This document shows positions 9,001 through 12,000 of a DNA stretch of 64,000 nucleotides, piece by piece. The position numbers are program-made. Each line of letters opens with the position of its first letter. Position 1 is the stretch's first letter. This DNA comes from Escherichia coli (GTDB taxonomy: Bacteria; Pseudomonadota; Gammaproteobacteria; Enterobacterales; Enterobacteriaceae): the NCBI RefSeq assembly GCF_003790525.1, contig NZ_CP033635.1; one strand, given 5' to 3'.

Positions 9001-12000
9001 AATCATAAGGATAATCATAATATTGTTTAATCAAAACCTTGAATATATCGACACAGGAGACCAGGGAGCTTTTGATATCCTCTGATAACTGATTGTTTTT
9101 AACAGTATTAAGTATGCTTTGTTGCGTATATGGCATCAAATTATTGTGCGGAGCTTTTAATGATATCATCGCGATCTCTCTTAAATAAAAATAAACGTCG
9201 CAGATAATAAAGCCCTGATTAAACCAGGCACTATCAGAAATCGCTCATAACTAACGTGTGAAGTATTGTGTACTGGAGGGAGTTAATTTAACAATTTGAA
9301 TTTACGTTATAGGTTTTACTGCTACTTTGATATTATTTCGCTCTCCTTAACTAAAAAGTTAAGTGGAGAGCGAAGTTAATATGTTAAACCACAGGATATT
9401 TATTAATTGTTTCAGTCTGTTAGTGTGCGATTATCGATAACAAAACGATATTTCACATCACCTCGCAGCATTCGCTCATAGGCTTCATTAATTTGATCGG
9501 CCCGAATCATCTCTATATCAGCCACGATGTCATGTTCGGCGCAAAAATCGAGCATCTCCTGTGTTTCTGGAATGCCGCCAATCATAGAGCCGGCTATCGC
9601 ACGGCGTTTCATGATCAGGTTGAAAACTTCCGGTGATTTATGCGGTGTCGCAGGCGCACCAACCAGCGTCATGGTGCCATCACGCTTCAGCAAGGTGGTA
9701 AAATCGTCGAGATTATGTGGCGCAGCTACTGTATTCAAAATGAAATCGAAACTCTTGAGATGAGCCGCCATCTCATCGGCATTGCGTGAGTTAACAACTT
9801 CATCGGCCCCCAGGGCTTTTGCCGCTTCGCGTTTTGCCTCAGAAGTGGTAAATGCCACCACATGCGCCCCCATCGCGTGGGCCAGCTTAATCCCCATATG
9901 TCCCAGACCGCCGATGCCGACCACGCCCACTTTTTTTCCCGGCCCGGCCTGCCAGTGACGTAGCGGCGAATACGTGGTGATCCCTGCACACAACAAAGGT
10001 GCCACCGCCGCCAGCTGCTCTTGCGGGTGACGAATACGCAGAACATATCGCTCATGAACGACGATCTGTTGTGAGTAGCCGCCCAGAGTATGGCCCGGTT
10101 CGTCCGGCGTCGGCGAGTTATAGGTGCCGGTCATGTGATCACAGTAGTTTTCCAGCCCGTCTTCACACTCTTCGCAATGTTTACAACTGTCGACAATGCA
10201 GCCGACACCGACCAGATCGCCCGGCGCATGTTTTTCTACCTGATCACCAACGGCTACCACACGCCCCACAATTTCATGACCCGGCACACAGGGGTAAACC
10301 GTCCCCGCCCACTCGGAACGGACCTGGTGGATATCGGAATGGCAGACGCCACAGTAAGCGATTTCGATTTTGACATCATGCGGTCCCGGTTCACGCCGGG
10401 TGATATCCATCGGTTCCAGCGGTTGTTTAGCGGAATATGCACCAACAGCTTTGATCTTCATTGTGTTTACTCCTGATTAGCTATGTGTATTTGGCGATGC
10501 CTGATATGTCATCGCGGCAAAACGCGTCCATTGAATATAGCCAATATTTAAACCACCCGATCCAGCCCCAACATGCCGCGAGCCTGAATGAAACAGAGCA
10601 GCAACGTTCCCCATAAGGCGAGCGCCTATAAGTGTGATATTTGCTATCCGTAAAAGACAAAAATCGGCAAAACTGATGATATTTTCACGTAGACAAATAG
10701 TTATCTACACAACGTTGGTAATGACTCCAACTTATTGATAGTGTTTTATGTTCAGATAATGCCCGATGACTTTGTCATGCAGCTCCACCGATTTTGAGAA
10801 CGACAGCGACTTCCGTCCCAGCCGTGCCAGGTGCTGCCTCAGATTCAGGTTATGCCGCTCAATTCGCTGCGTATATCGCTTGCTGATTACGTGCAGCTTT
10901 CCCTTCAGGCGGGATTCATACAGCGGCCAGCCATCCGTCATCCATATCACCACGTCAAAGGGTGACAGCAGGCTCATAAGACGCCCCAGCGTCGCCATCG
11001 TGCGTTCACCGAATACGTGCGCAACAACCGTCTTCCGGAGCCTGTCATACGCGTAAAACAGCCAGCGCTGGCGCGATTTAGCCCCGACATAGCCCCACTG
11101 TTCGTCCATTTCCGCACAGACGATGACGTCACTGCCCGGCTGTATGCGCGAGGTTACCGACTGCGGCCTGAGTTTTTTAAGTGACGTAAAATCGTGTTGA
11201 GGCCAACGCCCATAATGCGGGCTGTTGCCCGGCATCCAACGCCATTCATGGCCATATCAATGATTTTCTGGTGCGTACCGGGTTGAGAAGCGGTGTAAGT
11301 GAACTGCAGTTGCCATGTTTTACGGCAGTGAGAGCAGAGATAGCGCTGATGTCCGGCGGTGCTTTTGCCGTTACGCACCACCCCGTCAGTAGCTGAACAG
11401 GAGGGACAGCTGATAGAAACAGAAGCCACTGGAGCACCTCAAAAACACCATCATACACTAAATCAGTAAGTTGGCAGCATCACCCACAACGTCAATAAGG
11501 GCATATTCTTCAAAGATAATGTCCATTTCTGCCGACACACTCATACTCAGGCCGCCCCACTCCCTGGGGCTTAAATCTCTTACTGTTCACCGTTGCAGAT
11601 ATATCAAGTTCGTATCAACCTGCCACACTCCCCCACACCAGTTGCCCTTTATGGAACGTTGCGGTTCTCGGCGAGATACGCGCCACCGCCTCGGCGGAAC
11701 AGGAGGCGTCCACCAGCACAAAGCTGGCGTCATCCTGCGCTTTGGGCCACACGCGCTCGCCTTTTTCGTTGAGCGGCAATACATCGCCAGTGGCTAAAAA
11801 CAGCGAACGGGACAAATTCTGTTCGTTAGGACGAATATAGAGCTGCGCGTAGAGATTGGCTTTTTCCAGCATGTCGCCCAGGCCGTAGGGAGACCAGTGG
11901 TCGATAACGCTGTCGGTGCCGGTCATGACTTTTACGCCTTTGTCGTGCAACTGTTTGAGCGGCATATGCAGCGTGTCAATCGGCACCGTCGAGGCGATAG

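Follow-up and report, generated by a model that had tools for sequence, protein, structure and literature searches.

Introduction

The canonical form of the insertion sequence IS1 is represented in Escherichia coli K-12 MG1655 by IS1A and IS1E, and in K-12 BW25113 these two were described as the copies accounting for IS1 transposition (PMC12428005). The same study described the role of the A6C frameshift site, a weak promoter that partly overlaps the left terminal inverted repeat (IRL), and target duplications of "8 bp or 9 bp"; the insA promoter was reported to be extremely weak and to be repressed by InsA (PMC12428005). The ends of IS1 carry an outward-directed -35-like hexamer and can form hybrid promoters (PMC8764528). 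In ST131, a co-oriented upstream IS1 raised the expression of afaA, lowered that of osmB and left that of ugd unchanged, and the outcome depended on a -10 element at the right spacing (PMC8764528).

The IS1 considered here lies between yahJ and yahK in a 64-kb stretch of E. coli DNA, the whole of which (64,000 nucleotides) is referred to as the window. It shares with K-12 MG1655 IS1A and IS1E the length of 768 bp, IRL, the right terminal inverted repeat (IRR), the insA/insB layout, the A6C site and a 232-aa InsAB' product, and differs from them at three nucleotides (IS positions 369, 444 and 486). Compared with InsAB' of K-12 IS1A there is a single substitution, R130 here for S in K-12. The location is also different, as the K-12 copies sit elsewhere and the yahJ-yahK gap of K-12 contains no IS1. 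The reading that we favor, with a probability of about 0.88, is that an intact IS1A-type IS1 made a recent simple insertion into the AT-rich yahJ-yahK spacer of a chromosome close to that of strain SMS-3-5.

A complete IS1 between yahJ and yahK

The element and its parts are as follows.

10717-11484, minus strand: complete IS1, 768 bp, with IRL on the yahJ side and IRR on the yahK side
11462-11484, minus strand: IRL, the 23-bp left terminal inverted repeat, an exact match to GGTGATGCTGCCAACTTACTGAT
10717-10739, plus strand (outside-in): IRR, the 23-bp right terminal inverted repeat, an exact match to GGTAATGACTCCAACTTATTGAT
11154-11429, minus strand: insA, 91 aa, repressor with zinc ribbon and helix-turn-helix (open reading frame; Pfam PF03811 and PF12759)
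10732-11235, minus strand: insB frame, 167 aa (open reading frame)
11172-11180, minus strand: A6C programmed -1 frameshift site TTAAAAAAC, IS positions 305-313
10732-11429, minus strand: InsAB' transposase, 232 aa, insA plus insB through a -1 frameshift, reconstructed from the sequence
11450-11477, minus strand: promoter-like site CTGCCA-16-TATGAT overlapping IRL, coinciding in position with the weak insA promoter already described

A preliminary description of this DNA had reported a complete 768-bp IS1 with intact terminal repeats, and this is borne out: insA, insB and the A6C site are all present, and each terminal 23-mer is exactly the canonical one, with the two arms agreeing at 18 of 23 positions. 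The other traits of the IS1 family were found as well, namely a length of about 768 bp, imperfect inverted repeats of about 23 bp beginning with GGT, overlapping insA and insB' frames with an A6C site and a predicted frameshift product of 232 aa, a transposase with an N-terminal zinc ribbon, a helix-turn-helix and a C-terminal IS1-type DDE domain, and, with one irregular base, a flanking target duplication of 8 or 9 bp. The reconstructed InsAB' matched Pfam families PF03811 (8e-21), PF12759 (1.7e-28) and PF03400, DDE_Tnp_IS1 (E = 3.5e-78), and was identified as an IS1 family transposase equivalog by NCBIfam model NF033558 (E = 6e-73; 245 bits against a cut-off of 100). When positions 10300-11750 were scanned for sigma-70-like promoters, the site overlapping IRL was the sole match. 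No second IS1 or IS1 end was found in the 64-kb window by a search with the canonical end sequences. The element is an ordinary, already known member of a long-known family, and every defining feature that can be tested is present. With all of its sequence parts intact this copy is probably transposition-competent, and a fresh insertion implies recent mobility of this IS1 allele.

The two genes on either side of the element are intact.

9412-10461, minus strand: yahK, NADPH-dependent aldehyde reductase (open reading frame; matches the SMS-3-5 yahK coding sequence by position and length)
11615-12997, minus strand: yahJ, amidohydrolase, with its stop codon 130 bp upstream of IRL

The yahK product has zinc-ADH Pfam domains. 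As the preliminary description had stated, IS1 is located in the gap between these genes with insA and insB reading toward yahK: all are on the minus strand, and the end of IRR is separated from the yahK ATG by 255 bp.

The empty site and the age of the insertion

Outside of the insertion, the window and SMS-3-5 differ at two of 63,231 positions (27879 and 34033); the left flank is identical to SMS-3-5 over 10,715 bp, and both mismatches fall in the 52,516 bp of the right flank. At 1,153 bp, the yahJ-yahK spacer is 777 bp (768 + 9) longer than the 376-bp spacer of SMS-3-5 and K-12, and removal of IS1 together with positions 10708-10716 in silico restored the 376-bp SMS-3-5 spacer base for base. 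The empty site foreseen in the preliminary description, in which one copy of the target sequence CACAACGTC joins the two flanks, was found in both SMS-3-5 and K-12 MG1655; its statement that MG1655 has no IS1 at this locus was borne out, the spacer there being empty at 376 bp. In 13 near-identical relatives among the matches listed, window positions 1-25000 span 24,223 bp (25,000 - 777), which implies an empty site in each. Strain CM2, which matched positions 1-25000 with 100% coverage and identity, was considered as a possible carrier and was rejected; its spacer is empty (376 bp) and its IS1 is elsewhere in the 25 kb.

Across 5,426 complete E. coli genomes, the site was uninterrupted in 4,495, including K-12 MG1655. 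The insertion with both of its junctions was present in none of the 5,426, and neither was the IRR junction in one piece; the IRL junction was present in only two (2018-166 and 2015C-3121), with another IS1 allele and in another background. An identical IS1 in most genomes would have indicated an old feature fixed in the lineage, and this alternative has next to no probability, as no complete genome among the 5,426 has both junctions, the nearest relatives (two differences in 63 kb) have the empty site, and the duplication is still recognizable. Absence from the 5,426 genomes, together with an uninterrupted site in 4,495 of them, instead points to a recent, strain-private simple transposition, in agreement with the original proposal. 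By these comparisons the insertion is private to the source strain and arose after that strain diverged from SMS-3-5-like genomes, and it may be of use as a lineage marker for this SMS-3-5-like strain.

The junctions and an irregular base beside IRR

Three features define the junctions.

10708-10716: left copy of the target duplication, CACAACGTT, whose last base, T10716, departs from the target
11485-11493: right copy of the target duplication, CACAACGTC, with no difference from the empty site
10716: orphan or mismatched T at the IRR junction, where the empty site has C

Both 10708-10715 and 11485-11492 carry the 8-mer CACAACGT, and the 9-bp flanks agree at eight of nine positions. The claim that a direct repeat flanks the element on both sides therefore stands as far as CACAACGT is concerned, but the arrangement is not a clean one: T10716 separates the left copy of the 8-mer from IRR, giving the layout CACAACGTT / IS1 / CACAACGTC. 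The span first given for the insertion, 10708-11492, is 785 bp, or 8 + 1 + 768 + 8, and includes T10716 without mention of it. On the sequence, the duplication may be read either as 9 bp with a mismatch at the junction or as 8 bp plus one orphan T. The flanking repeat is not a chance resemblance, because excision of IS1 and the left 9 bp restores the SMS-3-5 spacer exactly.

With the mechanism taken from IS1 biology, InsAB', the product of a -1 frameshift at A6C, would have joined the IS1 ends to staggered cuts in CACAACGTC, and gap repair by the host would then have produced the flanking duplication. An error of assembly, in which a collapsed or mis-joined repeat placed IS1 at a site that it does not occupy in the strain, is very improbable. 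Polishing errors tend to occur at repeat boundaries, and T10716 is an irregular base at just such a boundary; against this, both junctions fall at the exact termini of IS1, the flanks are contiguous in the empty site, and a duplication of eight of nine base pairs is what a real transposition is expected to leave, whereas a mis-join would give none.

A genuine transposition being preferred, the irregular base itself has several candidate origins. The expected number of chance mutations within the 18 duplicated bases is about 6e-4 by our own arithmetic from the background of 2 in 63,231. With divergence from SMS-3-5 this low, the irregular base is more readily tied to transposition or to sequencing; T10716 is most likely a by-product of one or the other, and a later mutation is unlikely. 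It could reflect an 8-bp duplication to which one base of the donor flank was added, faulty repair, or a polishing error at the repeat boundary. Of 39 further complete IS1 copies surveyed, 22 had no duplication, 12 had a perfect one of 9 bp and five had a perfect one of 8 bp. Duplications of 8 bp are thus common among the copies with a duplication (5 of 17), and the 8 + 1 junction pattern was absent from all 17. The idea that an imperfect duplication is a common IS1 pattern was rejected on this count (0 of 17), which provides no base rate favoring any of the mechanisms.

The allele and its possible donor

The present copy differs from IS1B-type copies (K-12 IS1B and IS1C, and those of ET210 and strain B1) at 8-10 positions. 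The exact 768-bp allele is rare: of 20,395 E. coli records only four contain it, namely three large plasmids and one chromosome. The large plasmids of EF5-18-41 (from chicken) and TUM9803 also carry colicin B/M genes, and these two were the only perfect matches in PLSDB; the third is the large plasmid of PKF11, from a wild black kite. The chromosome of EF5-18-41 carries the exact allele too, but this copy adjoins yehL and not yahK and was rejected as an instance of the same insertion. Many records are one base away from this allele, the distinguishing base being T at IS position 369.

The allele of EF5-18-41, TUM9803 and PKF11, annotated as encoding WP_103215986.1, is 100% identical to the present copy over 768 bp. 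It occupies different targets, and where duplications are present at those other sites they are clean 9-bp repeats (AACTATTAC, AAAACCACA and CAATAAATG), compared with eight of nine here. The plasmid copies have an A beside IRR, which corresponds to T on the plus strand of the window, the same base as T10716. This shared base would fit the transfer of a single nucleotide from the donor flank, and would also be expected about one time in four by chance. From the sharing of the allele, the donor copy was probably plasmid-borne, and the rarity of this allele is a hint that it recently moved onto the chromosome from a large plasmid.

The landing site is relic DNA upstream of yahK

About half of E. 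coli genomes have a different arrangement next to yahK: the match ends at query position 303 (window 10619), next to an ABC-transporter permease gene. In O157-type genomes, an ASCH-domain gene and four ABC-transporter genes lie between yahJ and yahK. Genomes of the K-12 and SMS-3-5 types keep fragments of this island, about 50 nt of the 3' end of the ASCH gene and 75 nt of the 3' end of the permease gene, the latter visible in the window.

10548-10622, minus strand: remnant of an ABC-transporter permease gene, 75 nt from its 3' end (annotated as a partial pseudogene in relatives)

DNA found with yahK throughout E. coli reaches as far as the relic permease end. Only 10317-10620 is common to all lineages beside yahK, and the upstream part of this segment, 10462-10620 (about 160 bp), falls entirely within the 255 bp that yahK has kept. 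The target 9-mer is the counterpart of the final sense codons of the ASCH gene, and in this lineage it is relic non-coding DNA. Judged by the gene content of the relatives, the insertion point is a scar left by deletion of the island of ASCH and ABC-transporter genes. IS1 prefers AT-rich DNA, and within the spacer the AT content is highest in the target region, with a GC content of 31% in 10650-10749. A scan of the whole window against Rfam returned no family near the site, the sole match being IS009 at 58858-59058. In the favored reading, the insertion went into relic island DNA, and yahK, yahJ and the 255 bp upstream of yahK are untouched.

Expected effect on yahK

The preliminary description had also suggested that IS1 separates yahK from its native upstream sequence and may alter its expression. 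Separation in a way that is likely to matter was not upheld, since the 255 bp retained include the whole of the conserved segment of about 160 bp. A change in yahK expression by this IS1, either an increase through read-through from insAB or a hybrid promoter or a decrease through blocked yahIJ transcription, is in our estimate unlikely, although there are grounds for considering it. The genes insA and insB face yahK, with IRR 255 bp upstream; IS1 has an outward -35 in its inverted repeat and can make hybrid promoters; and in ST131, a co-oriented upstream IS1 was associated with an increase in afaA of about 7 log2 and a decrease in osmB of about 2 log2 (PMC8764528).

The sequence at the junction gives this possibility little room. 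The outward hexamer in IRR, TTGGAG, has only three of six matches to a -35 element, and the flank hexamers located 15-19 bp from it (TGTAGA, GTAGAT, TAGATA, AGATAA and GATAAC) were tested against the conserved final T of a -10 element; none of the five was found usable at promoter spacing, all lacking that T. The scan of 10300-11750 likewise reported no promoter at the IRR junction. A hybrid promoter of the IS type, with an outward -35 in the element and a -10 in the flank at 16-18 bp spacing, is accordingly not seen here. Candidates were rejected at both ends, at IRR for want of a usable -10 in the flank following TTGGAG and at IRL where TTGGCA is followed after 17 bp by AATAAG, also without the final T. 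Without a hybrid promoter, an effect on yahK lacks support. Further points against it are that the retained 255 bp include all of the DNA that accompanies yahK in every lineage, that the insA promoter is extremely weak and repressed by InsA (PMC12428005), and that ugd was unchanged by a similar insertion (PMC8764528).

The closest comparison is with the IS1 upstream of the ST131 afa operon (PMC8764528), which is likewise upstream and co-oriented and has an outward -35-like hexamer in its inverted repeat. The present case differs in having no acceptable -10 and in the distance of 255 bp from the junction to the start codon, and this combination means that activation is not predicted. From these features the predicted effect on yahK is slight or nil. 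As a caveat, should transcripts from yahJ extend into yahK, IS1 could stop them. A literature search found no paper mentioning both yahK and IS1, and nothing usable on the transcription start of yahK. The insertion would most likely be selectively near-neutral; as a strain-private copy of a very well-known insertion sequence in relic non-coding DNA, it matters little.

Recurrent IS1 insertion in the yahJ-yahK spacer

Comparison of junctions across genomes identified one further feature.

11485-11541: 57-bp stretch into which IS1 has inserted independently at least five times in different lineages of E. coli (junction comparison)

The five events are those of this window, of 2018-166 and 2015C-3121, of ETEC4090, of ET210 and of the ST361 clade. 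In 2018-166 and 2015C-3121, an IS1A with the orientation seen here has its IRL joined to CACAACGTCAATAAGGG at exactly the nucleotide used in this window, but the IS1 allele differs by 4 nt and the ASCH gene is still present. Their IRR sides are joined to unrelated DNA, an ABC ATPase gene in 2018-166 and lacI in 2015C-3121, a pattern that indicates later adjacent deletions or rearrangements. These insertions are independent of the present one. The IS1 of ETEC4090 is divergent (28 differences) and oppositely oriented, and its clean 8-bp duplication, CATATTCC, lies at the equivalent of window positions 11502-11509. In ET210, the IRR of an IS1B meets the spacer at about 11515 and a deletion extends to yahE; in the ST361 clade, the IRR of an IS1A does so at about 11541 and a deletion extends to pdeL.

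On sequence comparison, the yahJ-yahK spacer is a local hot spot for IS1, and the present insertion is one more data point for it as a recurrent target. IRR is directed toward yahK in four of the five independent events, an observation that might favor an effect on yahK expression; against such an effect, IRR in 2015C-3121 is joined to lacI and not to the yahK side, and the orientation in ETEC4090 is opposite. The same two cases weaken the argument that an orientation bias reflects selection on yahK, and leave no consistent pattern pointing to such selection. Repeated use of the stretch fits target preference better than selection on yahK, because both the orientations and the fates of the yahK side differ between events. 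For the insertion in this window, location in a local hot spot would mean that target preference alone suffices to explain the landing.

Two further readings of the locus are put forward tentatively, and jointly at somewhat less than even odds: that 11485-11541 may be a hot spot directed by its sequence and, separately, that T10716 may record imprecise cleavage by InsAB'. The flank of the target, TCAATAAG (11492-11499), is identical to 8 nt of the inner part of IRR, a match with an estimated chance of about 4%. Possible causes of a sequence-directed hot spot are this 8-nt match between TCAATAAG and IRR or bent AT-rich DNA. For T10716, cleavage in the plasmid donor may have taken place one nucleotide outside IRR and been followed by an insertion with an 8-bp stagger. 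Either reading, if true, would make the locus a convenient natural substrate for studying how IS1 chooses its targets and how its ends are cleaved.

Other lineages have IS1 at this spot beside junctions that lack the DNA between pdeL and yahJ or between yahE and yahJ. In one more lineage, going by gene order, the DNA from yahK to lacI appears to be missing at the IS1 junction.

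The yahJ-yahK spacer

In the K-12 and SMS-3-5 types, the 376-bp yahJ-yahK spacer is the scar of a deletion. In the window it is present as two segments, which were compared with the corresponding locus of O157:H7 strain JEONG-1266 (L012).

10462-10716, window: first scar segment
11485-11614, window: second scar segment

At this position O157-type genomes carry a gene for an ASCH-domain protein and a four-gene ABC transporter. What the scar retains of them is about 50 nt from the 3' end of the ASCH gene and 75 nt from the 3' end of a permease gene.

Within the 57 bp downstream of yahJ (window 11485-11541), IS1 has inserted independently at least five times, in different lineages of E. 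coli, as seen when the equivalent positions in five loci from other genomes were compared (L095, L096, L098, L005 and L004). Two genomes of one lineage, 2018-166 and 2015C-3121, carry IS1 at the nucleotide identical to that of the window insertion. Several of the insertions in this hot spot were followed by adjacent deletions that extend to pdeL, yahE, an ABC ATPase gene or lacI.

Comparison with closely related strains

The window differs from E. coli SMS-3-5 by only two substitutions in 63 kb, at 27879 and 34033. One changes betA codon 444 from CAT (H) to CGT (R), and the other, at rclA codon 271 (CGC to CGA), is silent. Strain CM2 (NZ_CP158308.1) fully covers window positions 1-25000 over exactly 25,000 bp and its yahJ-yahK site is empty, so that CM2 must have an IS1, together with a duplication of 9 bp, at some other place in these 25 kb.

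The Rfam scan of the window returned a single match.

58858-59058, minus strand, window: IS009, candidate small RNA family (191.8 bits)

IS1 copies at other loci

IS1B elements in yahL were found in two other strains, both with the same IRR junction and the left flank ...CTTGAATATATC.

9050-9817, L003 (strain B1): IS1B in yahL
1273-2040, L097 (MMC-J-0085): IS1B in yahL

The element of strain B1 has the 9-bp duplication GAATATATC. MMC-J-0085 lacks yahK and the rest of the DNA from the yahL IS1B to the yahK upstream region.

The IS1 on the colicin B/M plasmid of EF5-18-41 was compared with that on the TUM9803 plasmid (L016) and with the EF5-18-41 chromosomal copy (L010).

4001-4768, L011 (EF5-18-41 plasmid): colicin B/M-plasmid IS1

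In TUM9803 the element is surrounded by the clean duplication AACTATTAC. In EF5-18-41 its IRL side adjoins ...GAATAAATG, and the similarity of this flank to CAATAAATG, the duplication of the chromosomal IS1 in the same strain, suggests that IS1 inserted a second time and mediated a deletion in the colicin B region.

Three IS1 copies in Citrobacter amalonaticus AUH_CA_2023_1 (L051, L058 and L059) measure 769 bp rather than 768, probably because of single-base indels inside the element or sequencing errors in homopolymers. One of the three has a perfect 9-bp duplication.
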